Source of the DNA: an uncultured Gammaproteobacteria bacterium | GTDB lineage: Bacteria > Pseudomonadota > Gammaproteobacteria > GCA-001735895 | Direction of reading: 5' to 3' | DNA: 64,000 nt | Assembly (NCBI GenBank): GCA_963835795.1 | Contig: CAWIHJ010000023.1 | Location: 9,059-73,058 of the forward strand | Part shown: one piece after another, positions 17,608-64,000 of the stretch | How positions within the stretch are numbered: the first letter of the stretch is position 1 | Layout: every line of letters starts with the position of its first letter | Program-made: the position numbers and the translations under genes | Notes under the pieces: model-generated | What the model saw: only the letters and a program-made list of their open reading frames with translations | What the model was told of the DNA's origin: nothing | Databases searched by the model: none

Positions 17608-19138
17608 TCAGGCGCGAGCTTCCAGCTCGATTTTGCGTCGAGCGACATATTCCTGTAACGCGTCATCGATTCCCGGGTCGATGGCAGGCTGTTGATATTC
17701 CGCGAGCAGTTGCTTCCAGATCTGGTTGGCGCGCTGTTCGGTGTTGACCGAACCGGCTTCGAGCCAGGATTCGTGGTTACTCCAGTTCGACAGGAGCGGT
17801 GCGTAAAAGGCGTTCTCGTAGCGTGACATGGTGTGTTCGGCACCGAAGAAGTGCCCGCCGGGACCCACTTCACGGATGGCATCGCGCGCCAGGGTTTCGG
17901 CGTTGACTTCGAAGGGTTCGAGACTGGCCGCCACCATCTGCAGTATTTCGGCATCGATGATCAGTTTTTCCAGCGACGCGGTGAGCCCGCCGTGCAACCA
18001 GCCGGCCGCGTGCTTGATCATGTTGGCCTGCCCGGATATCGCCCCCCACAGCGACAGACAGCTCTCGTAGGCCGCCTGCGCGTCGGGGCAGTTGGCGGCG
18101 TTGACGTTACTCGAGCGAAACGGCACGCGAAGTCGCCTGGCCAGTTGTCCCGAGGCCTGGGCCGCCTGCAGGTATTCGGGCGTGCCGAAAGCGGGTGAGC
18201 CGGTCTTCATGTCGACATTTGAAGTAAACCCCCCGTAGAGCACCGGCGCGCCGGCGCGCACGATCTGCGTCAGTGCAATGCCCGCCATGGCCTCGGCATG
18301 CTGCAGCGCAAGCGCCCCGGCCAGCGTGATGGGCGCCATGGCCCCGGATAGCGTGAACGGGGTAATCGCCGAGGCCTGCCCATGTTCGGCCAGGGTGATC
18401 AGGCCTTCGGCCATCGGAATATCGAGTTGCAGCGGGGTGTTGGTGTTGATAATTCCGCACAGGGCCGGTGTTTCGATCAGATCCTTCGGGGCTTTTGCCG
18501 AGACTGATGGCCATCATGTTGATGGCATCGAGGGTTTGCCCGCGCCCCATGGTCCAGGGCACCCAGTTCTTGTCGAGCAAGGTGCACTGGGCATAAAACA
18601 GGTCCAGGTGACGGCTCGGGGCAGGCAGGTCCATGGCTTCGAAACCACCGCCGCCATCCTGGTGCAAAATGTCGAGGCTTTGCACCAGGCGAATGAAATC
18701 GCACATTTCCGCATAGCTGCCGGTGCGCCGGCCCTTGTCTGCGTCCATCACGTAGGCGGGACCTCCCACCGAGGTGAAGATCGCGTGTCCAGCGCCAATG
18801 CGCAAACGCTTCGCCGGATTGCGGGCTTCCAGGGTAAAGCTTGCTGGGGCTTTGGCGATCAGCGCTTCGACCAGCGCGGAATCGAAGCGAACCCGTTGGC
18901 TGGAATTGTCCACATCGAATCCCGCCTTGCCATAATGCATGCGCGCCGCATCCGACAGGATCGTCATGCCGGTTTCCTTGAGTATCGACAGGCCCGCCAG
19001 GTGAATGCTTTCCAGCGCGTCGTCTGACAGCAGCGCGTAGGGCGGATTGTAATAGCGCAGCGGCTTCCAGGGTGGCTGTGCGAGCGTGCCGGAGGTGCGG
19101 ATCTTGCGTGCACCGCGGCGGCGTGATGGCTGGGTCAT
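17608..19138 (-). pseudogene. mttB: MttB-superfamily (COG5598) methyltransferase, non-pyrrolysine type, one frame disruption
   Basis: ORF 18107..19138 (MTQPSRRRGARKIRTSG...LSDDALESIHLAGLSILKETGMTILSD...MMAISLGKSPE) joins ORF 17608..18414 extended upstream (DLIETPALCGIINTNTPLQLDIPMAEGLITLAEHGQASAITPFTLSGAMAPIT...GGHFFGAEHTMSRYENAFY). The shift is at the CCCC/GG runs around 18483-18491. The start overlaps the stop of the upstream flavoprotein gene (ATGA). Confidence 0.8.
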
Positions 19139-21211
19139 GAAAGTCTCCTCGGCAGGTTGTCAGGGTCAGGATTTAGCGGTTGTAGCAAGGCGCGTTCGCG
19201 TCGGCACAGCAGGCTGGCAGGTGGTGCATCGAATTCGCGCGCGAATTTGTGCCCGCTGTAGACCGCATCGGCGATGCTCGAGGGCACCAGGCAATCACCA
19301 ATGCGGGTGGCGTCGACATCGAGTTGATCGAACAGCTCGTGCCTGGCGCTGCGCCCGGTGACCAGTACCAGGTGGTCAAACTCGTGCCTGAAGGTTTTGC
19401 CACTGTAAGTGCAACGGCTGGTCAGGCATTGGCTGTCAATCGATTCTGCTGTTTGCGAAAAGACCATTTGCAGGCCCATTGCGGACAATTTCTTTTGAAT
19501 GAACTCCTGCTCGTCGGTCATCACCGTCCAGGCTGAAACCATCAGTTGCGGCGTCAGGTAAGTAACCGTCGATCCCTCGGCGAGCAATTTCTCCGCCAGT
19601 GCGCCGCCCATCATGTAGTGTTCATCGTCGTATATCAGCACCCGACCGGATAACCTGGTGCCGGCAAACAAGTCGTCGGGCGTATGGATGCCGGCGCTCG
19701 CGGCGATGCTGATCGGGTGGTGCAGGCTGGCGCCTTGCCCATCGCGCCGCCACTGGCTGCCGGTGGCGATGACCACGGCATCGGCGCCAAATTCGCGAAT
19801 CTCGGCGGCGCGTAAGCGGGCTGTCGAGGTAAATTTCGACGTTGGCCATTTGCGCCAGCAGGTGAGCGCGATAATCGCGCACGCGAATCCAGTTTTGCAG
19901 ACCAGGCAGCGAAGCCTCGTGGATGACGCGGCCACCGAGTGCTGTGCCGGCTTCCGACAGGGTCACCTGGTAGCCGCGACGCGCCAGGCTGAGCGTGGCT
20001 TCGAGACCCGCCGGGCCGCCTCCGACCACGAGGATCGAGGCATCCGATTTGGCCGCGGTCGATTTTCTCCGGGTGCCAACCGCGACGCCATTCTTCGCCG
20101 ATGGTCGGATTCTGCGTACAGCGTAAAGGTGAGGCCTCGTTATTCGCCGAACGACAGATGTTGCAACCAATGCATTCGCGAATTTCATCTTCGCGCCCGT
20201 TATCGATCTTGTGCGGTAAAAACGGGTCGGCGATTGACGGTCGCGCGGCGCCGATGAAATCCTGCACGCCGCGTTTGATCTGATCGACCATGGTATCTGG
20301 TGAAGTAAAACGACCAACGCTGACTACGGGTTTCGAAGTGAGGGATTTGACGATGCCGGCGTACTCTTGCTGGAAGCCTTCAGCCGAAAAGCGCGAACTG
20401 CAGGAATCGTTGCCAAGACTGCCGCCCAGCGCGATGTCCCAGAGATCCGGGAGTTCGCCCAGCAATTCGATGATCTGGCGGCCTTCATGCATCGGCTTCG
20501 ATCCCCTCCGCGCCCTGCAACTTCGTCGATCGCAAGGCGCACCGCAACCGCGCAGCGATCGCCGACCGCTGCTCGCGTATCCTCGATCAATTCGCGCAAC
20601 AGGCGGCAGCGGTTTTCCAGCGAACCCCCGTATTCGTCGCGGCGATGATTGGTCAGCGGCGAGAGGAACTGGAAGGGCAGGTAGTCGTGACCGGCATACA
20701 CGTAAATGATGTCGAAACCGGCCTGCTGCGCGCGCATCGCGGCGTCACGATGCCACCCCCTGAAGGCCGCGATGTCGTCGAGTTCCATGCCTTTCACCTG
20801 GGTCGGATTCAGGTATTTCGCCGATACCGCACTAGGGAGCGAGCGCGACTTCGCGCGTGCCGCGATTATTCGCGTGACTAGCCGCCGTGCCACAGTTCGA
20901 TGCCGGCCAGCGCGCCATGTCGGTGAATGGCCTCACAGGTAATCTGCCAGCTGGCTGCATGTCTTCGTCGTCCCACAGGCTCAGGTAGGCAAACGGGGTT
21001 TCGTCGGAACTCGGGTGAATCGAACAATACTCGGTGCAGACAACGCCCCAGCCACCTTCCGCCTTGATGGCACGCAGGGCGGCTGAACTGTTGGGTTTCA
21101 TGTTACCCATGCCGGTTGCGTGTGGTGTCTGGTAGAAACGATTGGGTGCGGTAACCGGACCAATCTTGAACGGGTTCGAAGAGGCAGATCGTAACGAGGG
21201 TTTCTGGACAT
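19135..21211 (-). pseudogene. Trimethylamine/dimethylamine-dehydrogenase-family Fe-S flavoprotein (OYE-like FMN barrel + 4Fe-4S + ADP/FAD-binding domains; StcD/N-methylproline-demethylase-like), about 7 frame disruptions
   Basis: The fragments read in order as:
- MSRNPRYDLPL / NPFKIGPVTAPNRFYQTPHATGMG...WDDEDMQPAG
- QITCEAIHRHGALAGIELWHGG
- SHANNRGTREVALAP
- SAVSAKYLNPTQVKGMELDDIAAFRGWHRDAAMRAQQAGFDIIYVYAGHDYLPFQFLSPLTNHRRDEYGGSLENR...AVRLAIDEVAG
- MHEGRQIIELL...IRECIGCNICRSANNEASPLRCTQNPTIGEEWRRGWHPEKI
- SDASILVVGGGPAGLEATLSLARRGYQVTLSEA...ANVEIYLDSPLT
- AAEIREFGADAVVIATGS...IGDCLVPSSIADAVYSGHKFAREFD
The Cys motif and CTQNPTIGEEWRRGWHPEK closely resemble trimethylamine dehydrogenase (TMADH). 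Confidence 0.8.
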
Positions 21212-23278: not shown

Positions 23279-23661
23279 CTAGAGCTGATCGAGTAACCGG
23301 TCGATGTACTGTGTCCGCAGCGCGATGTCTTCCTGCAACAGGCGGATCTCTTCCTTCAGCATGGCTTTCAGGTCCAGGCCCTCGGCTTTCGCCATCTTGA
23401 GTTGTTCGAGTTCGTGCAGCGCTTCGCGAAATGCGGGAGTGCTGGCATACAGGTCTGGGTTTTGCGGGTGCCGCTGTCGACCATCACCGATTCCTTCACC
23501 TGCGGAAACTTGTAGCGCCGGATGACCGGCAGCAAGGATCCTTTCTTGCGGCTGTAGGCGATCTGCAATACATCGGTCTTGCCGACCGTGTAAACCGCGA
23601 ACTTTTCGATTTCTTCGGGGTGCCGGATACCCATTTCGGTCAGTTTCGGATACTTGCTCAT
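23279..23661 (-). pseudogene. DUF3461-family small protein, one frame disruption
   Basis: MSKYPKLTEMGIRHPEEIEKFAVYTVGKTDVLQIAYSRKKGSLLPVIRRYKFPQVKESVMVDSGT then continues in another frame. That frame reads PQNPDLYASTPAFREALHELEQLKMAKAEGLDLKAMLKEEIRLLQEDIALRTQYIDRLLDQL* (stop 23279-23281). The shift is near 23455-23475. Family assigned from memory of DUF3461 N-termini. Confidence 0.5.
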
Positions 23662-23695
23662 AATTTTTCCTCAGGTAGATTAATATCAGGACTGA

Positions 23696-25596: not shown

Positions 25597-26554
25597 CTAC
25601 ACCATTTTCTTTGCGAGACTGCCGCCGGACTTGGCGGAGATATCATCGACAATCAGGTTGATCGCGATGGTAAAGGAAGCAATCGCCAGCGCCGGCCAGA
25701 TCGCCGAATAAGAGCCGTAGGTCAGGCCCTGCAGGTTTTCACGCACCATGCTGCCCCAGTCGGAGGCGGGTGGTTGCACGCCGAGCCCGAGGAAACTCAG
25801 GCTGGAGATGAACAGCACCACGAACACCAGGCGCAGACCGAAGTCGGTGGCCAGCGGCATCGCCGCATTGGGCAGTACTTCCGCGCGGATTATCCACCAG
25901 ATGCCCTCACCGCGGGTCTGCGCCGCCTCGACAAAGTCCTGCACCATGATGTCCTGGCCGAGCGCGCGTGCGATGCGGAACACGCTGGTGGCGTAGATCA
26001 CCGAGGCCGTGCCGATCAGATATGGGTATCGACGATCCCAGCGCCGCGATCACGATCAGGCCGAGCATGATCGTCGGTAGCGCGAGTATCGCGTCGTTGA
26101 CCCGGCTGATGCCCATGTCGATCCAGCCGCCCTTGACCGCGGCCAGAATGCCGAGGGTGATGCCGATCAGGTAGGCGATCAGCGTCGCGGCGAGCGAGAT
26201 GCCGATGGTATTGCGGGCACCGAACAGGATGCGCGACAGGGTATCCCTGGCGAGATAATCGGTACCCAGGTAAAAAGTGCCGTATTCGTTGGTGAGTAAA
26301 CCTCCGTCTTTGGAGTATTCGGGGTCGCCGTAACTCAGGAAGCTGTCATCGCCATCCATGTCCATTTCGTGGAAAGGCGCGATACTCGGGCCGATGATGC
26401 AGATGATCAGCCAGAAAGCGACCACGGCGCAGGAGGCGTAACCGACCCAGGTCAGGCTGAATTTTCGTTTCGGCGGCGCATCCGGTAACTCCGCAAAGGA
26501 GTCCAGTTCCGCGATGACTTCTTCTTCTTTCTTGCTTGCTACTTGTTCAGTCAT
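25597..26554 (-). pseudogene. ABC permease, DppC/OppC-like (operon 2), one frame disruption
   Basis: ATG 26554 (MTEQVASKKEEEV...) behind GAGGGGA. ...LGTDYLARDTLSRILFGARNTIGISL...IAALGSSIPI continues in ORF 25597..26001 extended upstream (LIGTASVIYATSVFRIARALGQDIMVQDFVEAAQTRGEG...). The shift is near 26018-26030. Confidence 0.8.
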
Positions 26555-26571
26555 GGTTATATCCCCTCGAA

Positions 26572-27524
26572 CTATTTCGGATTGCGCAGACGCGGGTTGG
26601 AAAGTATCGAACCGATATCCGCAAGCAGAATCAGGACTACGTAGGTGCCGCAAAAAATCATTGCGCAGGCCTGCACCAGCGGCAGGTCACGCGTTTGCAC
26701 GCCGTCGATCATCAACTTGGCGAGGCCAGGGTAGGCGAAGATGGTTTCGACGATGACCACGCCGCTGACCAGGTAGGCCAGGTTCAGCGCGATGACGTTG
26801 ATGATCGGTCCGATCGCGTTGTAAAACGCGTGGCGCATGATGATGCGGCTGCGCGGTACGCCTTTGAGGATCGCCATTTCGATGTAGGGCGAACTCATCA
26901 CGTTGAGTATGCCGGCGCGGGTCATGCGAATCATTTGCGCCGACACGACGATGACCAGCGTAATCAGCGGCATCGCCAGGGCTTTCATCAGTTGCCAGAA
27001 GGATTCTTCGCCAGTCATGTAGGCAGTCGACGGCAGCCAGTGCAGTTCGACCGCGAGGATCAGCACCGCGACGGTGGCGATGAAAAACTCGGGAACCGAA
27101 ATCAGGCTCAGGGTGCCGAAGGTAACGATGCGGTCCAGCCAGGTGCCGGGATGCATCGCCGCCCACAGGCCGAGCGCGATGGAAATGGGAATCGAGATGA
27201 TCGCAACCCAGCCGGCCATCATCACCGTGTTGCCGAGGCGACCGCCGATCAGGCTGGAAATGGTCGCGCCGCCGGCCTTGGAGATGCCGAGATCGCCGGT
27301 GACCATGTCACCCAGCCAGCCAAAATAGCGGATGTACCAGGGTTGATCGAGACCGAGTTCGGCACGCAGTGCGGCCAGGGTCTCGGGTGTTGCCGACTGA
27401 CCGAGACACGATCTGGGCGACGTCGCCGGGCAATATGCTGGTGGCGATGAAATACGATCACCGATACCACCCACAGGGTTGCGAGGCCGATGCCAATTCG
27501 CTGCATGACCATTCGTGTCATCAT
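26572..27524 (-). pseudogene. ABC permease, DppB/OppB-like (operon 2), two frame disruptions near the 5' end
   Basis: The gene reads MMTRMVMQRIGIGLATLWVVSVIVF, then IATSILPGDVAQIV, then LGQSATPETLAALRAELGLDQPWYIRYFGWLGDMVTGDLG, ending ...SPYIEMAILKGVPRSRIIMRHAFYNA...NPRLRNPK*. Shifts are near 27443-27455 and 27401-27415. Confidence 0.8.
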
Positions 27525-27726: not shown

Positions 27727-29364
27727 TTATGCCAGCCAGATGAATTCCGGCCATTCACAACCACCGAGCTGTCCCAGCGGTACCGTGGGCATGCCCATGA
27801 CATTGTTAGCGATACCGTCGTTGATGTTGGAAAATGCCGGAATGACCATGCCGCTGTCTTCGTGGACCAGGGTTTGCATTTCGCAGTACATCTCGTGACG
27901 TTTCGACCGGATCGATTTCGGCCAGTGACAGGGTCAGCAGACTCACCCATGCGCTCGTTGTTCCAGAAGGTGTCGTTCCACGGCAGCGCCGGGGCCGAAC
28001 TGGATGCCGAGCTGCGAGTTTGCGGTCGGACGCATGTTCCAGGTGACCACGTTGAGCGGCTCCTTCATCCACACCGCACCCCAGTAACCGTCGGTCGGCA
28101 CCTTCTTCAACTGCAGGTCGAAGCCGATCTTGGCGCAGTTGGCCTGGGCGGTCAGGCAGATGTCCTCGATACCACCGGATACCGGCGCGACGTAAAGTTC
28201 GGCTGACGAAATGCCGGATTTCTTGAAGTGGAACTTGGCCTTGTCCGGATCGTAGGGGCGTATCCGGCAACTCGCTAGCAGAAGTCCTTGCCGTGCGCGA
28301 GCCGAAATCGGCGTGTCGTTACCGACCGAACCCTTGCCCTTGAGGATACGCTTGACGATACGCTCGCGATCCTGGATGTATTTCATACCCAGCACGAAAG
28401 TCATCGTTGTTGCCCGGCGCAGGTATTTCGCAGAACACAAATACCGAGTTGCAAGGCGGCCGGAGTTGACAGCAGGGTAACACCATCGGCGCTTTCGATC
28501 TGGCGGAACGCGTTGGGCTCGATCTGGGTTATCATTTGCATGTCACCGGCTATCAGCGCATTGACGCGCGCCACCGGATCGGTGATCGCGGTGATTTCGA
28601 TCGCGTCCAGATTTGGCACCCTCACGCCAGTAGTTCTTGTTGCGCGAGTGCACGGACTTGACGCCGGGCTGGAAAGAATCCATGACATAGGGTCCTGTGC
28701 CGATGCCATTGCCGGTAGAACCCTTCTGCACGATCTTGGTCTGGAACAGGCCGAGCAGGGTGGGCAGGTCGGCATTCGGTGATTCCAGGATCGCCTTGAC
28801 TTCCATCGGGCCGGTCTTCTTCCATTCCTTCACCGATGCCAGTACCGATTTGATTACCGACTTGGAGTCTTCACCCTGGTGGCGCTTCATCGTGTAGACC
28901 ACGTCATCTGCGGTCAGCTTGGCACCATCGTGGAATGTGACACCTTTGCGGATCTTGAAAGTCCACTCGGTAGCATTGCTATTGGGTTCGAAGGATTCGG
29001 CCAACTCCGGCTGTGGAGTCAGGTCGTTGGCGTGCTGGATAAGGCTGTTATAGGTAGCGCGGCCACGGGTGTAATCGATGGTCGAAGTAAACAGGGTCGG
29101 ATCGAGTTGATCGTTCGGACCGTGCAGATTCGATGCCATGCGCACCGAACCGCCTTTTTTCGGTGTGGCGGCCATGACCGACTTGCCATCGGTCAGCAGT
29201 TGTTCGGCGACGGTCAACGAGACCCCGGTGACCATGGCGAGCTTGAGGGCATCGCGCCGCGTGACCTGGCCAGTACCGCCTTTCACCATCTTGTCTACCA
29301 GGTCCTTGTCGGCCTGGCTGAGATCCCGGAAATTCAATTCGGATTGGGATTTGTCGTGTTTCAT
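27727..29364 (-). pseudogene. ABC substrate-binding protein, family 5 (operon 2), Tat signal, at least 6 frame disruptions
   Basis: The fragments read in order as:
- MKHDKSQ...VTRRDALKLAMVTGVSL...ATPKKGGSVRMASNLHGPNDQLDP...PELAESFEPNSNATEWTFKIRKGVTFHDGAKLTADDV...NKNYWREG
- VPNLDAIEITAITDPVARVNALIAGDMQMITQIEPNAF
- VFCEIPAPGNNDDF
- VLGMKYIQDRERIVKRILKGKGSVGNDTPIS...YDPDKAKFHFKKSG...TDGYWGAVWMKEPLNVVTWNMRPTA
- WNDTFWNNERM
- LLTLSLAEIDPVE
- RKRHEMYCEMQTLVHEDSGMVIPAFSNINDGIANNVMGMPTVPLGQLGGCEWPEFIWLA*
Paralog of 15766..17370. Confidence 0.75.
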
Positions 29365-29638
29365 TTTCTCTCCTCGATTATGTAGTAATGGTACTTCTTA
29401 TAATATTAGTGGACGATGAACCTTTGCTTAACCTGCCGGAGCATTAAAGCGAAGAAGTCTGGAGTGTTGGCCAAAGACGAACTCACCGTGAACGGTCCTA
29501 GCCTAATAGCAGCACTATTTAATGTCAAAGGCTGCTTCAGGGACCCGGATCGGGGAAATAATGCAAGGGGGATGATATCGAGCATTGATTGGTTTAGAGT
29601 AGCGTTCAATCCGGGATGCGCCCGGTGCTGGATCGCCC

Positions 29639-34890: not shown

Positions 34891-35478
34891 ATGCAAGCTA
34901 AACGCTTTATCGACGAGCAGCAGCTACTCGAAGATTCCTTCCGGCTGGCACGGCAGATTTACCACAGCGGCTTTCGCCCCGATTTCATCGTCGGTGTGTG
35001 GCGCGGTGGTTCGACCGTGGGTATTTATGTGCAGGAATGCCTGCAGTATCTCGGGGTCGAAACCGATCACATCGCGGTGCGTACATCCTATCGAGGCCGC
35101 GACGACTACCTGCGCCAGCTCGAACAGGGGAGTGAAATGCGCGCGCATGGATTGCAATATTTGTTCGAAAACCTGAATGCCGACGATGCGCTGTTGATCG
35201 TCGATGACGTCTACAGCACCGGTCGCAATGTGCAGGCCATCGTCGACCGCCTGCGCCAGAAAAACAAGCGCAACATGGCGCGCGAGCTGCGTGTTGCAGC
35301 GCCTTATTACCGCCGTCGCGAGGGTAGCCATAATCCGCCTCCCGACTATTACCTGCAGCAAACCGAGGACTGGCTGGTATTGCCCTACGAACTGACTGGC
35401 ATCAGCCGGGACGAAATGGCAAAAAATAAACCATGGATACTTCCATTGCTCGATGAACTCAATCCAGGCTGGCAATAA
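34891..35478 (+). CDS. Type I phosphoribosyltransferase-family protein, paralog of 34256..34819
   Basis: 195 aa with LLIVDDVYSTGRN. It shares QQLLEDSFRL, GFRPxxIxxxWRGG, GxETDHIAxRTS and PDYYL blocks with the divergent neighbour. Confidence 0.7.
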   Translation: MQAKRFIDEQQLLEDSFRLARQIYHSGFRPDFIVGVWRGGSTVGIYVQECLQYLGVETDHIAVRTSYRGRDDYLRQLEQGSEMRAHGLQYLFENLNADDALLIVDDVYSTGRNVQAIVDRLRQKNKRNMARELRVAAPYYRRREGSHNPPPDYYLQQTEDWLVLPYELTGISRDEMAKNKPWILPLLDELNPGWQ

Positions 35479-35485
35479 CAAGCAC

Positions 35486-36660
35486 ATGAAATTTTCTGAT
35501 CTGACCAACCGCGTCAAGGGCGGTGCCGCCGACGCATGGGATTTGCACTACGAGGCCAAACAGGCAAAAGAGCAGGGCGAAGATGTCATCGTGCTCAGCG
35601 TTGGCGATCCTGACTTTGCCACGCCGCCAGGCGTCATCGAGAAAGCATCGCAGGCGATGCGCGAGGGCGATACCCATTACACCTCGATCCAGGGTCACCA
35701 GGTACTGCGCGAAGCCATTGCCGAGCGCCACCGCGCAAGCAGTGGCCAGTCGATTACTGCCGCCAACGTGATCACCACTTCGGGTGCGCAAAACGCGTTG
35801 TTCGCCTGTGCCCAGTGCCTGCTGGATGCCGGTGACGAGGCGATCGTTTTGCAGCCCATGTACGTGACTTACGAAGCGACGATACGCGCGCCGGGCGCCA
35901 GGCTGGTGCCGGTGGTGCTGGATGCGGAGAAGGGTTTTCGCCTCGAGCGCAAGGCGCTGGAGCAGGCCATCAGCGAACGCACGCGGGCCATATTTTATGC
36001 CTCGCCGAGCAATCCGACCGGGGTCGCGCTAAACCCGGACGAACTGCAAATGATCGCTGATCTCGCGCAGCAGCACGACCTGTGGGTGATCGCCGACGAG
36101 GTCTACGCCGATTTTGTCTTCGACGAGGAATTTCATCACATCGCCTCGCTGCCGGGTATGAACGATCGCGTCATCACCATCGGCAGCCTGTCCAAATCCT
36201 ATGCGATGATCTGGTTGGCGCGTGGGCTGGGCGATTGCACCGCTCGAGATGATCGCCAACATGGATAAACTGGCACTGTGCATGCTTTACGGTTTGCCGG
36301 GATTCATCCAGCAGGCCGGTGCACACGCCTTGTTGCACTGCGGTGAGGATTTGCAACGCATGCGCGCGGTTTATCGGCAGCGGCGGGACTACTTGTTCGA
36401 CGCTTTCTCGGCGATTCCCGGCTTGCAGCCATTGCTGCCGCAAGCCGGCATGTTCATGATGGTCGAGGTGCACGGGCAGTGGTTTCCCGACCGCTGAATT
36501 TGCCAGGGCACTTTACCAGGCGACCGGAGTATCGGTGCTCGATGCGACCGCCTTTGGCGCCAGTGCCGAGGGCTATGTGCGCGTATCCTATACGGTCAGC
36601 GAAAACGATCTGCAGGAAGCCTGTGGCCGGATCAAGTCTTTCATGGAAAACCTGCAATGA
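35486..36660 (+). pseudogene. Class I/II PLP-dependent aminotransferase (aspartate/aromatic-type), two frame disruptions
   Basis: The gene reads MKFSDLTNRVKGGAADAWDLHYEAKQAKEQGEDVIVLSVGDPDF...SPSNPTGVALNPDEL...ITIGSLSKSYAM. It continues GWAIAPLEMIANMDKLALCMLYGLPGFIQQAG...GMFMMVEVHG, then GFPTAEFARALYQATGVSVLDATAFGASAEGYVRVSYTVSENDLQEACGRIKSFMENLQ*. SLSKS carries the PLP lysine. Shifts are near 36205-36225 and 36475-36490. Confidence 0.8.
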
Positions 36661-37240
36661 ACGATACGAATCTTACGCGCTGCTGGTGGTGTGGTGACGA
36701 CGAACTCTACCAGCAGTACCACGATCTGGAATGGGGCGTGCCGGTACATGACGAGCGCGAGCTGTTCGAGTTTCTTTGTCTCGAAGGCGCGCAGGCCGGT
36801 TTGAGCTGGATTACGATTTTACGCAAGCGCGAGCACTATCGACGGGTATTCGACAATTTCGATGCCGATAAAATTGCCCGTTACGGGGATGGCAAAATCG
36901 CCGAGCTGTTACAGGATCCCGGAATTGTGCGCAATCGGCTCAAGGTCAACGGCTTCGTCAAGAATGCGCGCGCCTACCTCGAATATGCGCGAGCAGGGTT
37001 TGACCCTGGACGCCTACCTGTGGGATTTTGTTGACGGTAAACCGCGGCAAAACGCGCGCCAGTCCATGAGCTGAAGTGCCGGCAAACACCGAGATCTCGG
37101 ATGCCATGTCAAAGGATTTGAAAAAACGCGGATTTACTTTCGTCGGCAGCACCATATGTTATGCCTTCATGCAAGCTGCCGGCCTGGTGAACGATCACCT
37201 GGCCGACTGTTTTCGTCATCAACAATTGAAAGGAGATTGA
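36657..37240 (+). pseudogene. tag: DNA-3-methyladenine glycosylase I, two frame disruptions
   Basis: The gene reads MNDTNLTRCWWCGDDELYQQYHDLEWGVPVHDERELFEFLCLEGAQAGLSWITILRKREHYRRVFDNFD...NARAYL, then NMREQGLTLDAYLWDFVDGKPRQNARQSM, then EVPAKTEISDAMSKDLKKRGFTFVGSTICYAFMQAAGLVNDHLADCFRHQQLKGD*. The ATG overlaps the upstream stop (ATGA). Shifts are near 36985-36995 and 37065-37080. Confidence 0.85.
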
Positions 37241-55153: not shown

Positions 55154-55612
55154 ATGCGACTATCCACTAAAAGCCGATACGCGGTCACCTCACTGCTCGA
55201 TCTTGTCATGCACTCTGACAAGGGGCCGGTGTCGCTCGCCGATATTTCGATCCGCCAGGGGATTTCGTTGTCTTACCTGGAGCAGCTGTTCGCCAAGATG
55301 CGACGCAACAAGCTGGTCATCAGTACGCGCGGGCCGGGTGGTGGCTATAGTCTTGGTTGTACTCCGGACGAGGTCTGTATCGCCGACGTCATCAATGCTG
55401 TCGATGAGGCAATGCAGGTTGTCAATAAAGGTGTTAACAGCGGTTCAGCGGATTATGAACCTTGTCTTACGGAACAGCTATGGGATGAATTGAGTGCTGA
55501 GATCGAAAGCTTTCTTACCACTATTTCGCTGGCCGACATGATGCAGAATAACGAGGTTCAGGAACTTTCCCGCGCCCACGATCTGCGCCAGAATCCCCAA
55601 AATTTGCTATAG
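55154..55612 (+). CDS. iscR: Rrf2-family regulator, IscR-like
   Basis: MRLSTKSRYAVTSLLDLVMHSDKGPVSLADISIRQGISLSYLEQLFAKMRRNKLVISTRGPGGGYSLG is collinear with E. coli IscR, and it is the first gene of the isc cluster. Confidence 0.85.
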   Translation: MRLSTKSRYAVTSLLDLVMHSDKGPVSLADISIRQGISLSYLEQLFAKMRRNKLVISTRGPGGGYSLGCTPDEVCIADVINAVDEAMQVVNKGVNSGSADYEPCLTEQLWDELSAEIESFLTTISLADMMQNNEVQELSRAHDLRQNPQNLL

Positions 55613-55616
55613 ACCG

Positions 55617-56765
55617 ATGTCGGTATACCTCGACCATAATGCAACCTCGCCGATGCACCCGGAAGTGGTGGATGCGATGCTGCCGTACTTGCACAATCCG
55701 CCTGGCAATCCATCCAGCCTGCACAGTTTTGGGCGGATGGCGCGTTCGGCAGTCGAATCGGCGCGCGGCCAGGTGGCTGATTTGTTGCATTGTGCTCCGG
55801 CCGATGTGGTATTCACTTCCGGCGGCACCGAGGCCAACAACTTGCTGCTGAAGGGTTACATCGATCGCGACAATCCAGCCTCGATCGTGAGCAGCGAAAT
55901 CGAGCATCCCAGCATTCTGCAACCGCTGCAGCAACTTCGCGAGGCAGGGGTGCCGGTAACGCTGTTGAAGTCGGATAGTAGCGGACAAATTGACCTGCAA
56001 GCGGCTAGCGAAGCACTCGCGACCTTGAAACCACAACTACTATCGATTATTTACGCCAATAACGAAACCGGTGTGATTCAGCCACTCGAAGAGCTTGCGG
56101 CAATGGTCGATCGCGATACTTGCCTGGTGCACAGTGATGCAACCCAGGCCGTGGGTAAAATTGACCTGGACCTGTCGCAGCTTGCGCTCGACGCGATCAG
56201 TTTCTCGGCGCATAAATTGCGCGGTCCCCAGGGCGTTGGTGTGCTGGTCGTCAAACGCAAGCCCCGCAGCCTGCTGATCAGCGGGGGAGAGCAGGAAAAC
56301 AAACGGCGCGGCGGCACTGAAAATGTTGCCGGTATTGTAGGGCTCGGAAAGGCGGCACAACTGGCTGGCCTTGAAATGGAGCAGCGCAGGCATTATCTGA
56401 GTCAACTACGGGACGTGTTCGAGAGCAGGCTGGCAACGATACCGGGTAGCGTCGTGTTTGGACAACAGGCCCCACGCTTGCCCAACACTACGTTTTTTGC
56501 GTTGCCTTATTATCATGGGGAAACCCTGTTAATGGAACTTGATCGCTCGGGTTTTGCGTTGTCCAGCGGATCGGCCTGCCACAGTATGGTGACCGAACCG
56601 AGCCACGTCCTCACGGCAATGTCGGTTGATAGCAACCTGGCATTAAACGCGATTCGCGTCAGTTTTGGTATGAGCAACACTTTGCAGGACGTTGAGTTGC
56701 TGGTCACCAGGTTACATGAACTGGTAAACAAGCTCCCGGCGGTAATTCGCCAGGCAGCGGGATAG
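55617..56765 (+). CDS. iscS: Class I cysteine desulfurase (IscS/NifS-like, short C-terminus)
   Basis: [24 protein letters not shown] (PLP lysine) and the active-site loop SSGSACHS. It is 382 aa and ends shortly after the catalytic domain. Confidence 0.85.
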
Positions 56766-56776
56766 TAGAGACGATT

Positions 56777-57100
56777 ATGGCAATACAACTTAGCGACATC
56801 GCCGCATCACGCGTGCAGAATTTTCTCGATAACCGCGGCAAGGGTATCGGCCTCAGGTTGGGGGTCAAAACCACCGGCTGCTCCGGGCTGGCTTATGTTA
56901 TCGAATTCGTCGATGAGATTCGCGACGATGATGAAGTGTTCGAGAGCAAGGGCGTCAAAGTGGTCGTGGACAAGAAAAGCCTGATGTTTCTCGATGGCAC
57001 CGAGGTGGATTTTTCCAAGGTCGGGCTCAACGAAGGGTTTCAGTTCAAGAATCCGAACGCCAAGGAAGCCTGTGGTTGCGGTGAGAGTTTTACCGTCTGA
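56777..57100 (+). CDS. iscA: Iron-sulfur cluster A-type carrier
   Basis: [16 protein letters not shown]...[14 protein letters not shown] carries the three conserved Cys. 107 aa. Confidence 0.9.
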
Positions 57101-57117
57101 ACGATTCATCCAGTTCG

Positions 57118-57657
57118 ATGCAGTCCCCTGATCTTAGTCAGAATTATTTTGAGTTGTTTGGCTTGCCAACCGCGTTCGAGGTAGATCGTGGCCAGTTGCG
57201 ATCCGCGCAACGGCGTTTACAGGCGGATTACCATCCCGATCGACACGTGAACGGCAGTGACCGCGATCGGCGGGTGTCGGTGCAGGTTGCCTCCTGGATT
57301 AACCAGGCCTACGACACCCTGCAGGATCCGGTCAAACGCGCACGCTATTTGCTCGAAATCAGCGGCGCCGACATACCCGATGATTCGGCGACTACCTCGG
57401 ATACCGCTTTCCTGATGGAACAGATCGAATTAAGGGAAGAAATTGAAGCCTGTCGTGACGCAGCAGATGGTCTGCAGCGCAGCCAGCAGGTGGCAGTGCA
57501 GCTCGCCCAGCGGGCTCGCGATCTGGCCGCTGAATTCGTTGCCGCTTTTACCGCGGGCGAACAGCTAAAGGCAACGCAGGTCAGCCATAAAATGCAATTT
57601 ATTCAGCGTCTCCAGCTGCAACTGGATGAGCTGCAGTTCGAACTTGAGGGTAAGTGA
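57118..57657 (+). CDS. hscB: Fe-S assembly co-chaperone HscB (J-type)
   Basis: [34 protein letters not shown] (J-domain HPD motif) plus a C-terminal helical domain. Confidence 0.9.
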
Positions 57658-59528
57658 TGGCGTTGTTGCAGATTTCCGAACCGGGCGAGTCAGCAGCGCC
57701 GCATCAGCATCGTTTTGCGGCGGGCATCGACCTGGGTACGACCAATTCGCTGGTAGCCACGCTGCGCAGTGGTGAGGCAGTGTGCCTGGCCGATGAGCAG
57801 GGACGCGTATTATTGCCCTCGATAGTGCACTACTCAGAGACAGGCATCCTGGTCGGTTACGAAGCTGCCGAACAGCAGGCCAACGATCCAATGAATGCCA
57901 TCGCTTCAGTGAAACGGTTGATGGGCCGTGGCAGTCAGGACGTCATGCGCCTGGGCAATGTTTTACCCTACGAACTTGTCGCCCAGCAAGACAGCAATGT
58001 GCCACGTATCCGCACTCGACGTGGTGATTTCACTGCGGTTGAAGTGTCGGCAGAAATTCTGCGTGCGCTGGCCCAACGCGCACGACAGAGTGTCGGTGCC
58101 GATCTGGAAGGGGTCGTCATCACCGTGCCCGCTTATTTCGACGATGCCCAGCGTCAGGCTACCCGTGACGCCGCAACCCTGGCCGGGTTGAATTTGTTCC
58201 GACTGTTAAACGAACCGACAGCGGCCGCCGTTGCCTACGGTCTGGACCAGGACAAGGATGGTTTGATTGCCGTTTACGATCTGGGTGGTGGCACCTTTGA
58301 TATTTCACTGCTGCAACTCAATCGTGGCGTTTTCGAGGTGTTGTCAACGGGCGGCGATTCATCGCTCGGGGGTGATGATATGGATCATGCCATCGGTGAG
58401 TGGATTATCGTTGAGGCCGGTTTCGACAATGTGAATGCGACTCTCGCGCGGCGTATTTTGCTGGCGTCACGCGCTGCCAAGGAATCCCTGACTACAGCCG
58501 ACTCGACCAGTATTGTGATCGAAGATGCGCAGCATTCCTGGTCGGGCACGCTGACGCGGGCGAATTTCGATCAGCTGGTAAAGAGTCTCATTTCCAATAC
58601 CCTGGCGGCCTGTCGGCGTGTTCTGCACGATGCCGGGGTGAAACAAGCCGAAATCGATGAAGTCATCATGGTCGGTGGCTCTACCAGGGTGCCCCTGGTA
58701 CAGGCAATGGTCGCCGAATTTTTCGACTGTGAGCCCATGTGCAAGCTCGATCCAGACCGGGTTGTTGCGCTCGGGGCCGCGATTCAGGCGGATATCCTCG
58801 CGGGAAACAAGCCTGACAGTGACATGCTGTTGCTCGATGTGTTGCCCCTGTCGCTAGGCATCGAAACCATGGGTGGCTTGAGCGATAAAATTATTCCCCG
58901 CAATACCGCCATACCGGTAGCGCGTGCCCAGGAGTTCACTACTTTCAAGGATGGTCAGACGGCGATGTCGGTGCACGTGGTGCAGGGTGAACGCGAGCTG
59001 GTTTCCGATTGCCGCTCGCTGGCGCGTTTCGAGTTGCGAGGGTTTCCGCCGATGACGGCTGGCGCTGCCCGCATACGTGTTACCTACCAGGTTGACGCCG
59101 ACGGCTTGATGTCGGTCACTGCAGTTGAAACCAGCAGCGGTGTCAGTGCCGAAATCGAGGTCAAACCCTCTTATGGCCTGACCGACGGGGAAATCGAAAC
59201 GATGTTGCTGGCGTCGACGCAATACGCGCGCGAAGACATCGAATTACGCATGTTGAAAGAACAACAGGTGGAGGCGCAGCGTGTCATCGAAGCAATCAAT
59301 TCGGCGCTTGCCGAAGATGGCGACCAACTGTTAAGCGCCGCGGAGCGCGAGATTATTATTGAGCATCGCGAGGCGCTGGCGGCAGTGCTGGAAACGGCCA
59401 CCACAGCAGAGCTGAAACGGTTGATCAAGGAAGTGGAGGCCGCCAGTGAATTTTACGTTGCGCGCCGCATGAACCACAGTGTGCAGCAAGCATTGGCTGG
59501 CAAACAAATTAACGAGGTTGATGTTTAA
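57657..59528 (+). CDS. hscA: Fe-S assembly chaperone HscA (Hsp70 class)
   Basis: [10 protein letters not shown]...[12 protein letters not shown]...[10 protein letters not shown]... The ATG at 57657 overlaps the hscB stop (TGATG). The track ORF starts one codon earlier at GTG 57654. Confidence 0.95.
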
Positions 59529-59867
59529 ATGACGAGGCTAACTATATTGCCCCACGATGAAATTTGCCCGCAGGGCGCGGTCATCGAGGCCGAACCGGGG
59601 ATGAGCCTGTGTGATGCGATGCTCAGTAACGGCATCGAGATAGAGCATGCCTGTGAAAAGTCCTGTGCCTGCACGACCTGCCACGTTCACGTGCGCGAAG
59701 GCTTCGACTCGCTCGCAGAATCAACCGAAGACGAAGACGATTATCTCGACAAGGCCTGGGGTCTGGACATGGATTCCCGGCTCAGTTGCCAGGCCGTAGT
59801 CGGTGATGAAGAATTGACCATAGAGATACCAAAGTACACCATCAACATGGTTTCCGAGAATCATTAA
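59529..59867 (+). CDS. fdx: [2Fe-2S] ferredoxin, adrenodoxin type
   Basis: CEKSCACTTCHV...LSCQ Cys pattern. 112 aa, immediately after hscA. Confidence 0.9.
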   Translation: MTRLTILPHDEICPQGAVIEAEPGMSLCDAMLSNGIEIEHACEKSCACTTCHVHVREGFDSLAESTEDEDDYLDKAWGLDMDSRLSCQAVVGDEELTIEIPKYTINMVSENH

Positions 59868-59885
59868 ATAACCGAGGAGCGAACA

Positions 59886-60086
59886 ATGAGCCTTAAGTGG
59901 ACAGATACCCTGGATATCGCCATTGAACTGAGCGATCTGCACGCAGATGTCGATCCGCAATACGTTCGTTTCACTGATTTGCATGCCTGGGTATGTGCGC
60001 TGGATGAATTCGACGACGATCCGCAACACTCGAATGAAAAGATCCTGGAGGCGATTCAAATGGCCTGGATCGATGAAGCGGACTGA
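59886..60086 (+). CDS. iscX: Fe-S assembly protein IscX (YfhJ)
   Basis: [46 protein letters not shown] matches the IscX pattern. 66 aa, last gene of the cluster. Confidence 0.85.
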
Positions 60087-60295
60087 TCAACAGTAACAGT
60101 CAAAATATTGACACTAAAGCGTCAGGTTTCCGACGAATTATCGTTTTAATTCAATTGGTTTTAAGCTGCTTTTAAGGTCAATTAGATGCAGTTCAGGCCG
60201 TTTGATGAAAATAATTAATTTCGGCGAAATTTATATAAAAATAGTCAGATCAAAAACTTAACACGTTTTCATAATGTTAATTCTATAAAGTGAAT

Positions 60296-60311
60296 TGTGA
60301 ACTTGATCACA
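60296..60311. promoter_or_regulatory. Perfect CRP/Clp-type binding motif TGTGA-N6-TCACA upstream of rpfF
   Basis: TGTGA (60296-60300), acttga, TCACA (60307-60311). A TTGACT hexamer follows immediately at 60313-60318. The site is ~165 nt upstream of the rpfF ATG, inside an AT-rich 390-bp leader. Confidence 0.55.
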
Positions 60312-60355
60312 GTTGACTTGCATTCAATACCCGGATTGGTAAATTGTTGGTTGTA

Positions 60356-60378
60356 ATTCATTGTTAACAACAATGAAT
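60356..60378. promoter_or_regulatory. 10-bp-arm inverted repeat (operator-like) in the rpfF leader
   Basis: ATTCATTGTT-aac-AACAATGAAT is perfect. A second, smaller hairpin AATACAA-gcgat-TTGTATT lies at 60389-60407. Confidence 0.4.
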
Positions 60379-60476
60379 AAACAGTTGAAATACAAGCGAT
60401 TTGTATTCAATTAAAACATAACCAGAGTTTTCCCGGATGCAATATTCGGGTATATAACCAACCCGGAGAGACACTT

Positions 60477-61343
60477 ATGAGCAATGTGGCAGCATTGGAA
60501 CATTCCGCCTATCGTATTTCGGAGGCCGACAAGGAAAGTCCCCTTAAAACCCACTACGATTCAAATTATCGCGTGTCCTGGGCTCTGATGAAGGCAACAC
60601 CACGCCCCTGTTTCACCAATGAACTCCTGTCTGAATTTCACGAATACATTCGTGTCGTTAAACAGGAGATGCGCGAATCCAAGGGTGAAAAATACGATTA
60701 CATCGTAGTAGGTTCAGATGTGCCCGGTGTATTTAACCTGGGTGGCGATCTCAACCTGTTCCGTAGTTATATCGAAAGCAACAATCGTGACGGTTTATTC
60801 AACTATGCAATTCGTTGTATCGACATATTGCACGAAAACATTTGTCACCTTGATTGCGATCTCACTACCATTGCACTGGTACAGGGAGACGCACTCGGCG
60901 GTGGTTTCGAATCCGCGTTGGCGAGTAATGTGATCATCGCCGAGAAAGGCACCCGGATGGGTCTGCCGGAAGTGTTATTCAACCTGTTTCCCGGGATGGG
61001 TGCTTACTCGTTGTTGTCGCGACGGGTCGGAACTTCCAGGGCCGAAAAAATCATTCTCAGTGGCAAACTGTATACCGCTGAAGAACTTTATGAGATGGGA
61101 GTGATCGACATACTTGCCGAGAAAGGTGACGGCGAGGTCGAGGTCTACAAGTATATCAAGGCGGCCAGTCGCTACTCCAACAGTTACAACGCGATTCGCA
61201 AGGTGCGCGATGTCTGCAACAACATCAGTTACGATGAGTTGATCGATATCGCCAAGATCTGGACTGAAGCAGCTTTTAAGCTGGATGCGCGCGATCTCAA
61301 AATGATGGGGCGCTTGATAAATCAGCAGAACCGACAGTTTTAG
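60477..61343 (+). CDS. rpfF: DSF-family signal synthase (RpfF-type crotonase)
   Basis: 288 aa. VFNLGGDLNLF, IALVQGDALGGGFESAL, MGLPEVLFNLFPGMGAYSLL, KIILSGKLYTAEELYEMGVID and the C-terminal DLKMMGRL are collinear with Xanthomonas RpfF as I recall it. Both catalytic Glu positions are retained. Confidence 0.75.
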   Translation: MSNVAALEHSAYRISEADKESPLKTHYDSNYRVSWALMKATPRPCFTNELLSEFHEYIRVVKQEMRESKGEKYDYIVVGSDVPGVFNLGGDLNLFRSYIESNNRDGLFNYAIRCIDILHENICHLDCDLTTIALVQGDALGGGFESALASNVIIAEKGTRMGLPEVLFNLFPGMGAYSLLSRRVGTSRAEKIILSGKLYTAEELYEMGVIDILAEKGDGEVEVYKYIKAASRYSNSYNAIRKVRDVCNNISYDELIDIAKIWTEAAFKLDARDLKMMGRLINQQNRQF

Positions 61344-61369
61344 GAAGCGCCGGCAAAGCAGCTAACCAG

Positions 61370-63911
61370 CTAGTGCCTGGCAATATCCTGTTGCCTGACA
61401 TTGCCCAGCGCCGCGGTTGTCTCGAGAAACGCGCTCTCGACTTCCGCGGCCATTTTTTTGATGCCGTCGGTGCCAATATCGTAAGGCTTTAAACCTTCGG
61501 CCCGTGCGCAGATACCTGACAGCTTTTTTGCCCCCAGTTCAATCGAAGAACCTTTCAGCGCATGCAGCGCTTCGCGGTATTCCAGGTAGTCACTATCCAC
61601 CGCAGCGTGAATGCGCTTCACCTGCCTGGTTCCGTCGCGTTCAAAATTGTGCAGCAGATTTTCCAGAAAATGAAAGTCGCCGAGATCTGCCAATTCCTTG
61701 AGCACGGCGTCGTCATACCAGGCAGAAATGCCTGAATCAGTCTGTCTGGTGGATATATCCGTATGAACCGGTTGCGCTGCAATCTCCGGCTTGATCACAT
61801 TGCGTGATATCGATGCAATTCGATCGAGCAGCGCGCGGGCATTGATCGGCTTGGTGAAAAATGCGTCTGCGCCTGCGTCGATACAGGCTGCTCGGGCTTC
61901 CGGTGTGGCGTCTGCCGTGAGCATGAGAATGGGCAGCGAGCGACTGGTATCCATGAAACGAATCGCTTTGACCACGTCGAGTCCATTCATTTCAGGCATG
62001 TTCATATCCAGGATCAGCAAATCGACCGCGGCAAAGTTTCCATCCAGCACATCGAGCACCTTCTCTCCACTGTCTACCATCTGCACGTTGTGGCCGGCAT
62101 GCCGCAGAATGCCCTGTATGACCTGTTGATTGACTGACATTGTCCTCGGCAACCAGTATGTTCAGCGTCCTGCGCCTGGGGCTGCCGACCATAGTGTTCA
62201 GCGAGGCTAACGATATTTTCATCGGTATAGTTGACCATCTGTGCAGCATGGATGGCGTTGAACAGGGTTCGTTTTTCCTGCGGCTCGACTATGGTCGAAA
62301 TGTAGTACTGGTTCACCGCATTGATATTGACCATGGTGTCGGATGAGTTGACCAGTATCAACGACAGGTTTTCGAGCAGCGGCTCGTTACGAATCATCAA
62401 CGCGAACTGTTCGGCATCGATGCTGCCGAGGCTTTCCTGGTCGACAATCGCACTGTGATAGTGGTTGCCCTGTTCGGCGGCTTTCAACAGCAGGGAAATG
62501 GCACGTGTCGGAGATTGCGCCAGGTCGAATTCGATGCTCCAGCCTTTCAGCGCTGGTTTGATCTGATTTGCGGTGGCATCGTTTGCCAACAGCAGAATGT
62601 GATTTTCGGCAAGGCTGCGCTCGTTGTGTGGCAAAGCCACGAAGGGCAACTCAAGCCAGAAGGTCGAACCCTTATCGAGTTCACTTTCGACACCGATGAC
62701 TCCGCCCATCAATTCCACCAACTCCTTGGAAATTGCGGTGCCAAGGCCGGTGCCGCCGTAGTTACGGTTCGATTTGTGCTCGGCCTGGGTGAAATCATCG
62801 AAAATCGTTTTCAGGAATTCGGCGGGCATGCCGACACCGGTATCGATGACTTCAAAGCGTATTATAGGCCGGTCGCTCGTCACCGCCAACGCGAAAAACG
62901 CGCAGGTTGACCGAGCCTCTGATCGGTAAACTTGATGGCGTTGTTGACGAGGTTAATCAATACCTGGCGCAAATGCTGATGATCGCCTTGCAGCGCGAAA
63001 GGGGTGTCCGGGTCGATATTGCAGGAAATCAGCAAATCCTTCGTTGCGGCAGCCGGCGATAACATGTAGATCACTGAATTGACGAGGGAATACAGGTCCA
63101 GTTCCTTGTTTTCAATGGTGATCTTGCCGGCCTCGATCTTGGCGATATCGAGCACGTTCTCGATCAGTTCAAGCAGTGAGTGCGCTGAGCTGTGAAGGGT
63201 ACCCACCAATTCCTGCTGCTCCGAGCTAAGCCGGGTTTCACGCAACAAATCGCCCATACCGATGACGCCACTCAATGGAGTCCTTAGTTCGTGTGACATA
63301 TTGGCCAGAAAACGGCTCTTGGCTTCATTGGCCTGCTTGGCCGAAGCGATCGCGGCGTGCAGTTTTTTCAACAGGAAGGCGGCGTAAAGCGGTAACACCA
63401 GCAGTATCAACAACAGGCTGATGGCAAAAGCGCGATGCTCCTGCCAATACTCACTGCCGAGGGTAACAATGCCAAAGCCGATCAGGCTGACACCGAATGA
63501 AATATACAGGTAGCGTGTGCCATAGCGAAACCCGTTGCCGAGGGTGACCCAAAGATAAAACACGAATAAGGGTACGTGATCGCCGCCGGTCCAGTACATG
63601 ACGATGGAAAGCGAAATCATGTCGAGAAGAATGCCGACTACCCGACGAATCGGCGAAGGCCGCGGATTGCGGATGATCGCCGCCAGGATCAAAAACGCAA
63701 TGCTGGTGGCACTGAGAATGATGATGCTGGGTGTCGAGCCGAGAACATCGGCCAGCTCCTTGTCGGATCCCCAGGGGATGCAGAAATAGACGACCAGGAT
63801 TAACGCGATCGCGAGTCGCAAAATCGCCTGTTCCGGCTCGGTATCACCGGTTCCCTTCAAGCGCCGTTTGAGTTGCCCCAGCAAACTGATTTTGGTGTCA
63901 GATCCATCCAT
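61370..63911 (-). pseudogene. rpfC: Hybrid sensor kinase with RpfC architecture (multi-TM sensor, HisKA, HATPase_c, REC, HPt), about 3 frame disruptions
   Basis: The fragments read in order as:
- MDGSDTKISLLGQLKRRLKGTGDTEPEQAILRLAIALILVVYF... (5 TM-like segments) ...NMSHELRTPLSGV...LINLVNNAIKFTD
- PIIRFEVIDTGVGMP...GGTGLGTAISKELVELMGG...LAEHYG
- SPRRRTLNILVAEDN
- VNQQVIQGILRHAGHNVQMVDSG...LLILDMNMPEMNG...MLTAD...YREALHALKGSSIELGA
Shifts are near 62880-62900, 62185-62200 and 62135-62150. Confidence 0.75.
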
Positions 63912-63930
63912 AACGGGGCAACCGGAATTA

Positions 63931-64000
63931 TTAGCCGTCGCTAAATGCTTTGTAAATACTGGAAATATTGTCGATACGCTCGAAAAACGCTTCGACGCAA
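63931..64000 (-). CDS. rpfG: 3' end of an upstream gene, likely an HD-GYP response regulator (RpfG-like); partial
   Basis: The reverse-strand frame reads ...CVEAFFERIDNISSIYKAFSDG* with its stop at 63931-63933. An (FDP)xxVEAF-type ending is typical of HD-GYP domain C-termini, and the position upstream of rpfC matches Xanthomonas rpfG. Only 23 codons are visible. Confidence 0.4.
   Translation of the reverse strand, partial: CVEAFFERIDNISSIYKAFSDG

Follow-up and report, generated by a model that had tools for sequence, protein, structure and literature searches.

A DSF-type rpf cluster beside the isc operon of an uncultured marine gammaproteobacterium, with four frame breaks in its sensor gene

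Synthase, sensor and regulator genes

We have analysed a 64,000-nt stretch of DNA from an uncultured gammaproteobacterium (contig CAWIHJ010000023.1, positions 9,059 to 73,058; the window in what follows), the right-hand end of which carries three genes resembling those with which diffusible signal factor (DSF) is synthesised and perceived in Xanthomonas campestris (Xcc). An intact, rpfF-like synthase gene encoding 288 aa (60477..61343, plus strand) was recognised by its open reading frame (ORF) and by its Pfam, NCBIfam and PDB matches. Facing it is an rpfC-like gene for a hybrid sensor kinase (63911..61370, minus strand), delimited with ORFs, Pfam and alignment, which carries four +1 frameshifts and the repaired product of which counts 845 aa. 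Upstream of the latter, the 3′ end of a third gene is visible (63931..64000, minus strand), by our reading rpfG. This is the rpfF / rpfG-rpfC layout, i.e., the arrangement in Xcc, where an rpfG-rpfC operon is convergent to rpfF (PMC4504480). An earlier note on this DNA had described such a Xanthomonas-like arrangement in a gammaproteobacterium that is not a xanthomonad, and this description is borne out.

The 288-aa protein has the crotonase fold (Pfam ECH_1, 79 bits versus a cutoff of 27) and clears the cutoff of NCBIfam NF006452 by about 200 bits (373 versus 177). The blocks VFNLGGDL, ALGGGFE and MGLPEVLFNLFPGMGAYS are all present, and the catalytic glutamates of Xcc RpfF (E141 and E161 in the native numbering, with a 16-residue tag offset in the 3m6m construct) are aligned with E145 and E165 of the window protein; blocks and glutamates are as the earlier note had them. 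The distinction it drew between this crotonase and ordinary hydratases also holds when RpfF, Bcam0581 and DspI are compared. The top PDB matches are four DSF synthase entries (6dgn RpfF, 5fus Bcam0581, 7zq7 and 3m6m Xcc RpfF; 188–204 bits), while the next crotonase, AUH, scores 65 bits and Pseudomonas aeruginosa DspI 50 bits; the gap between structures of the RpfF family and every other PDB crotonase amounts to 120–140 bits.

The family placement is based on these score gaps and on pairwise identities. The window RpfF is 41% identical to Xcc RpfF and 39% to Bcam0581 (overall range 39–43%), and these two are 40% identical to each other. Given such similar distances, it is, as far as sequence can tell, a third or sister lineage of the DSF synthase family, about equidistant from Xcc RpfF and Bcam0581, and no housekeeping hydratase. 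By analogy with the Xanthomonas and Burkholderia paradigms, the crotonase-fold enzyme would act as dehydratase and thioesterase on 3-hydroxyacyl-acyl carrier protein (ACP) and release a free cis-2-unsaturated fatty acid; the enzymology of Bcam0581, dehydratase and thioesterase on 3-hydroxyacyl-ACP, is the model here (PMC4504480).

As deposited, rpfC consists of three overlapping minus-strand ORFs (63911-62880, 62889-62074 and 62152-61370), across which Pfam matches HisKA, HATPase_c, Response_reg and Hpt. The repaired protein shows five strong hydrophobic segments and a weaker one (i.e., five to six transmembrane (TM) segments), and its domain order is a multi-TM input, HisKA, HATPase, a receiver-fold domain, REC and HPt. 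The phosphorylation sites are H207 in the H-box, D634 in REC and H782 in HPt, and the N, G1 and G2 boxes are intact. Pfam and hydrophobicity thus agree with the earlier description of a convergent hybrid kinase with the RpfC order of about five TM segments, H-box, ATPase, REC and HPt. The best PDB match of the REC domain is the REC of Xcc RpfC (3m6m_D; 83 bits versus 62 for the next), the domain that was co-crystallised with RpfF, and 148 aa separate the REC Asp from the HPt His, versus 145 in Xcc RpfC (D512, H657).

DSF binding by Xcc RpfC needs R15, D17, S18, E19 and Q22, and S18T is functional (PMC5391125). In the repaired window protein, D23-T24-E25-P-E-Q28 immediately precedes the first TM segment (TM1); four of the five DSF-binding residues are matched (D23, T24, E25 and Q28) and a Thr stands at the position of R15. 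By its domain order, its nearest REC and its N-terminal motif, the window kinase is of the RpfC type and a putative DSF sensor, binding of DSF and RpfF being predicted. By analogy, this membrane kinase would bind the fatty acid at the short N-terminal sensor beside TM1 and autophosphorylate on H207, from where the phosphate would pass to D634, to H782 and on to the RpfG receiver, and RpfG would then degrade cyclic di-GMP (c-di-GMP) with its HD-GYP domain.

Between HATPase and REC lies an extra region of about 115–160 aa (residues ~425–583; 62167-62640, minus strand), for which no sequence match was found among PDB sequences. Its AlphaFold model is a (βα)5 receiver fold (pLDDT 74–91 there). In Foldseek, the modelled ORF 62074-62889 (minus strand), which covers the receiver-fold domain and, before it, the C-terminal portion of HATPase, has ShkA as its best match (6qrj; E 1.6e-7) over the CA domain and the pseudo-receiver REC1, and CheY-like proteins reach a TM-score of ~0.7. 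The extra domain carries a nearly invariant Asp (IVDQ) and is common to RpfC homologues outside the xanthomonads. Xcc RpfC presumably does without it, to judge from its length and the positions of D512 and H657. Two further candidate features of the homologous sensors were rejected: an insertion of ~1 kb, where the longer match spans merely include the REC of the adjoining rpfG, and truncation as a lineage trait, where short N-terminal homologues reflect a bias of the word-based search and full-length, intact genes are abundant.

The window covers only 22 codons and the TAA stop of the gene upstream of rpfC, its domains lying past 64000. The visible tail (63999-63931, minus strand) reads CVEAFFERIDNISSIYKAFSDG up to the stop and is 73–82% identical to the C-termini of 377–394-aa REC+HD_5 (HD-GYP) proteins encoded at the same position in two relatives, L002 and L006; ORF inspection revealed a very similar C-terminal end in a third, L005. 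The upstream proteins of all three are REC + HD_5/HD by Pfam, with an HHE...GYP motif. From the synteny and the match of the 22-codon tail, we infer that the upstream gene is rpfG, encoding a REC + HD-GYP c-di-GMP phosphodiesterase; the earlier statement that these codons end like an HD-GYP domain fits the C-termini in L002 and L006. The cluster had also been described as devoid of rpfB, and indeed, the ORF map and Pfam analysis of the stretch between iscX and rpfF revealed none. The missing linkage is normal; rpfB is unlinked in Xylella and Burkholderia, too (PMC4504480).

We have weighed whether the crotonase could instead be an ordinary enoyl-CoA hydratase of fatty-acid or aromatic-acid metabolism, lying beside genes for a generic hybrid kinase and a response regulator that are unrelated to it. 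The 288-aa protein does not pass the xanthomonad RpfF equivalog NF053515 (239.6 bits versus a cutoff of 550), which weighs against its assignment as a DSF synthase; in addition, NCBIfam holds no model for RpfC or RpfG, and models of the TorS/BarA type also match the kinase core. However, an ordinary hydratase would be at odds with the 120–140-bit gap to all other crotonases, DspI included, and with the wide margin over the NF006452 cutoff. Further evidence against it comes from the pairing with one and the same kinase and HD-GYP regulator, conserved across classes and phyla, from the REC domain nearest to that of RpfC and from the conserved DSF-docking motif, and we regard the hydratase alternative as very improbable.

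Frame breaks in the sensor gene

When the intact, 854-aa orthologues from L002 and L005 were compared with the window by tblastn, five collinear pieces were returned in frames 3, 1, 2, 3 and 1, and therefore, the gene changes frame four times. The earlier note had reported disruptions of the rpfC frame, and these are present, but the tblastn pieces and the alignment put their number at four rather than three. Removal of one base at each of ~62922, 62874, 62166 and 62138 results in an uninterrupted protein of 845 aa, collinear with the orthologues. All four breaks were located by alignment on the minus strand. Break 1 (62922) lies in the N-box/G1 region of HATPase, where ACCGA[T]CAGAGG has a base too many, the exact one being ambiguous within a few nt; nine out of nine aligned relatives have one base fewer. 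Break 2 (62874) follows after 48 nt and is an extra base in GAGC[G]ACCGG. Break 3 (62166) falls in the linker just before the first β-strand of REC, either in CAGGAC[G]CTGAAC or in a CCCC run 10 nt upstream, and break 4 (62138), 28 nt further on, is an extra base in GACAAT[G]TCAGTC, between the residues LVAEDN and SVNQQV.

Compared with the nine aligned relatives, the window has a single surplus base at each of the four breaks (all +1), and the breaks are closely paired, with 48 nt between the members of one pair and 28 nt between those of the other. The deposited frame of rpfC is interrupted by these shifts but by no in-frame stop. P0036 and P0042 (74–80% identity) as well as L082–L093 read in frame through rpfC, and break 3 is absent from all of these; among the relatives assembled from short reads, each has the gene intact. 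At otherwise invariant columns, the repaired window RpfC has six private substitutions, L082 six and L083 five.

One further relative, L081, changes frame at the linker of break 3 (5490-5520), with EHYGRQ and LNILV separated by 16 nt as in the window, and lacks breaks 1, 2 and 4. L081 is a long-read contig of 1.96x coverage in which the frame breaks about every 400 nt; its break at this site is inseparable from its noise and may be a coincidence or a feature shared with the window.

Frameshift-only lesions were also found in at least eight other genes of the window (OpuAC, MTTB, an OYE-type flavoprotein, DUF3461, an ABC permease, SBP_bac_5, an aminotransferase and Tag), i.e., in about one in six. 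They are mostly +1 (11 of the 14 shifts of known direction by our own reading of the frames; one-sided binomial ~0.03), and no in-frame stop was seen. According to the frames of ORFs and Pfam matches, OpuAC (6862-7843, plus strand) is split between frames, an MTTB-family methyltransferase gene (17608-19138, minus strand) has one frameshift, and the adjoining gene for an OYE/Oxidored_FMN + Pyr_redox_2 flavoprotein (19135-20893, minus strand) has about three. DUF3461, a BPD_transp_1 permease, SBP_bac_5 (two shifts), Aminotran_1_2 and Adenine_glyco are split or truncated (23282-23695, 25600-26686 and 27946-29397, minus strand; 35453-37031, plus strand). Shifts outside rpfC were placed at about 7440, 18490, 19850, 20055, 20510, 26030, 28410, 28610 and 36220. 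Moreover, at 2247-4561 (minus strand), two frame changes of the coding signal lie between the ORF of an ABC ATPase (3050-4561) and that of a Rieske/ring-hydroxylating oxygenase (2247-3401), and Pfam matched nothing in the piece between them, 3376-3684.

We consider the four breaks in rpfC to be probably an assembly artefact, i.e., single-base insertion errors in an indel-prone assembly, and the organism probably has a working sensor. The strain suggested in the earlier note, which makes the signal but is blind to it, becomes doubtful: since the rpfC insertions are exclusively +1 and similar lesions occur elsewhere in the window, in at least eight other genes, this story is probably artefactual, the more so as no other sign of decay was seen. 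Several observations weigh against an artefact, all the same. The frameshifted rpfC stands in a public NCBI/ENA deposit (P0035, 100% identical). Three of the four break sites lie outside homopolymers, and therefore, the homopolymer errors typical of 454, Ion Torrent and nanopore sequencing provide no explanation. The lesions are unevenly spread, with four in rpfC, three in the OYE gene and many genes of 530–710 aa intact, a pattern that also fits true pseudogenes gathering lesions. Finally, rpfC is damaged elsewhere: the gene in L006 has an in-frame stop after GLGTTIS (10950-10967) and that in L001 changes frame before the HPt domain (11135-11160), so that natural sensor loss may occur in the family.

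The same observations would favour the insertions being real and rpfC a recently inactivated pseudogene, in a strain that makes DSF but is blind to it via RpfC-RpfG; DSF might then be overproduced, RpfC no longer sequestering RpfF. The concentration of lesions in certain genes, most long ones being spared, the frameshifted state of the public deposit, and the frameshift in L001 and stop in L006 are all compatible with it, and the adjacent MTTB and OYE/TMADH-like genes of one pathway are both hit, as would be the case upon loss of a dispensable function. Nevertheless, every lesion in rpfC is a +1 single-base insertion, in two tight pairs, with neither a nonsense mutation nor a deletion among them. 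The usual spectrum of bacterial pseudogenes is biased towards deletions and includes nonsense mutations, and the frameshift-only, mostly +1 spectrum in the window, being unlike it, counts against inactivation. Amino-acid replacements at conserved columns are not in excess, the catalytic motifs of RpfC are all intact, and the genes similarly hit, about one in six, include those for an aminotransferase and a DNA glycosylase. We judge a genuine pseudogene unlikely, although it retains an appreciable share of the probability. Functional frame changes, by programmed +1 frameshifting or by a split of the kinase into HK and REC-HPt proteins at break 3, could be invoked because L081, the closest sequence at the DNA level, shifts at the position of break 3 with the same 16-nt spacing. 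The low coverage of that contig (1.96x) and its frequent breaks (~1 per 400 nt) argue otherwise, as does the fact that P0036, P0042 and L082–L093 read straight through. There is, furthermore, no conserved slippery or stop-codon context, a separate REC-HPt protein has no start codon, and breaks 1, 2 and 4 cut within the HATPase and REC folds; we give functional frame changes scarcely any credence.

Regulatory region upstream of rpfF

A 390-nt, AT-rich spacer separates iscX, the last gene of the preceding operon, from rpfF. Pattern matching revealed in it, 181 nt before the ATG of rpfF, a perfect palindrome of the CRP/Clp type, TGTGAACTTGATCACA (60296..60311; neither strand assigned). It is the only exact match to TGTGA-N6-TCACA in the 64 kb, where ~0.06 would be expected by chance (own arithmetic). 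In 14 relatives of the clade, the half-sites are kept between -179 and -197 relative to the start of rpfF, with varying spacer sequences. Directly after this site follows a σ70-like promoter, recognised by its conservation (60317..60345, plus strand), with a -35 element CTTGCA (60317-60322), a 17-nt spacer and a -10 element TAAATT (60340-60345); CTTGCA and GTAAATT are invariant or nearly so in 15 sequences.

Downstream of the promoter, folding and covariation delimit a structured 5′ leader of ~130 nt (60346..60476, plus strand) with three hairpins, H1 (60356-60378), H2 (~60383-60412) and H3 (60432-60450; loop UGCAAUA), followed by the Shine-Dalgarno (SD) sequence GGAGAG (60465-60470). The three-hairpin fold is found in every sequence. 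On a plain MAFFT alignment, 75% of cells pair versus at most 48% after a shift of the partners by one column, and the covariation is above that of all 500 shuffles. Hairpin H3 has compensatory changes in six out of six pairs, with 92% of cells paired and a conserved YGCAAYA loop. The covariance model R1 finds the leader in 18 sequences, exclusively of the window's clade and including three from outside the training set, with no match in Methylophaga or the other genome loci searched (L001–L040, L068); nor did the leader have an Rfam match. A role for H3 as an SD anti-sequestor, or in simple sequestration of the SD sequence, was considered and rejected, the alternative pairing not being conserved.

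Closer to the isc genes, another palindrome, GTCAA-N4-TTGAC, occurs at 60099-60112, 13 nt past the iscX stop. Its half-sites are conserved in most relatives of the clade, which suggests a putative protein-binding site, and more conserved blocks follow it (AATCAA..ACTT and TTTAAGG).

We thus predict that rpfF is transcribed from its own conserved promoter, with a putative CRP/Clp operator upstream and a structured leader downstream. The conserved operator and leader are the most original observation at the locus. Tentatively, and with more doubt than conviction, we raise the possibility that operator and 130-nt leader form an undescribed regulatory module, in which the leader could be a new riboregulator (a riboswitch or a protein-binding RNA) that ties DSF to the cyclic AMP (cAMP) or c-di-GMP status.

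Synteny, distribution and relation to known systems

The rpf cluster follows an iscR-iscS-iscA-hscB-hscA-fdx-iscX operon (55154..60086, plus strand; ORF map and Pfam), which is context outside the signalling system. The adjacency of isc and rpfF is common to L002, L005, L006, L013 and L081, the isc proteins of which are ~50–90% identical to those of the window. Because of this shared adjacency, the isc-adjacent position is, by comparison of these loci, ancestral to the window's clade and not a recent acquisition, contrary to what the earlier wording, a cluster appended to the isc operon, had implied. There is no iscU between iscS and iscA (11-nt gap), and the isc layout in L002, L005 and L006 is the same.

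A scan of one genome per species identified 589 relatives of the crotonase, the best 80 loci of which were inspected. About 60 of these 80 have a convergent sensor, nearly always encoded in one unbroken frame; at most of these ~60 genome loci and 25 sensor-bearing metagenome loci, another receiver-domain match, fitting rpfG, lies immediately upstream of rpfC. The taxa with the cluster include Methylophaga, Thioalkalivibrio, Acidithiobacillus, Thiobacillus, Methylobacillus, Zetaproteobacteria and Leptospirillum, while the nearest full-length RpfC relatives are encoded on JGI metagenome contigs (L082, 78% identity; L083, 76%). A 2015 review of DSF signalling names rpfF-rpfG-rpfC clusters in Methylophaga, Leptospirillum, Thiobacillus and Methylobacillus. 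Such clusters being already in the literature, that of the window is no new kind of system; it is a genuine but ordinary DSF-type cluster of a known sort. On balance, we are inclined to regard the three genes as a DSF-family quorum-sensing locus that an uncultured clade of marine gammaproteobacteria has inherited vertically, with a sensor that probably works.

Compared with the rpfF/rpfGHC locus of Xcc, the window has the same convergence of rpfG-rpfC and rpfF, an RpfF 41% identical with both catalytic glutamates, and an RpfC with the short N-terminal, putative sensor (D-S/T-E-x-x-Q) beside TM1, about five TM segments, HisKA-HATPase-REC-HPt and its nearest REC; the regulator in the syntenic relatives L002, L005 and L006 is REC+HD-GYP, as is RpfG. 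By contrast, the window has neither rpfH nor a linked rpfB, its RpfF stays under the xanthomonad equivalog cutoff, its RpfC has a Thr at the R15 position and an extra receiver-fold domain, and its locus follows the isc operon, with a CRP-type operator and a structured leader before rpfF. The clusters of Methylophaga, Thiobacillus, Methylobacillus, Leptospirillum and Acidithiobacillus have the same three genes in the same orientation, with RpfF 47–62% and full-length RpfC 35–59% identical, including the extra receiver-like domain. However, they lie in another genomic neighbourhood, without isc genes, the leader RNA model is unmatched there, and no exact CRP-type site occurs at the equivalent position (one is found at -318 in L010).

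The synthase Bcam0581 of Burkholderia cenocepacia is equally similar to that of the window (39% identity; 201–204 bits), but in the Bcam0581/RpfR and Cronobacter RpfF/R systems, the role of sensor falls to the cytoplasmic PAS-GGDEF-EAL protein RpfR, in place of a membrane-bound hybrid kinase and its HD-GYP regulator. Caulobacter ShkA, the best Foldseek match of the modelled ORF 62074-62889 (minus strand), has the same order of CA, receiver-like domain and REC, whereas its receiver-like domain shows no similarity at the sequence level, its input is different and it has no HPt; nothing in the window points to c-di-GMP binding as part of this likeness.

The catalogue of RpfF/RpfC/RpfG systems is hereby extended to an uncultured marine gammaproteobacterial lineage of marine and hydrothermal metagenomes, and an extra receiver-like domain is documented in sensors outside the xanthomonads. 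Caution is due with a signal-blind producer, a story that hangs on four one-base insertions in a window where about one in six genes is similarly hit. The conserved operator and leader, for their part, offer a testable handle on the regulation of DSF synthesis outside plant pathogens.

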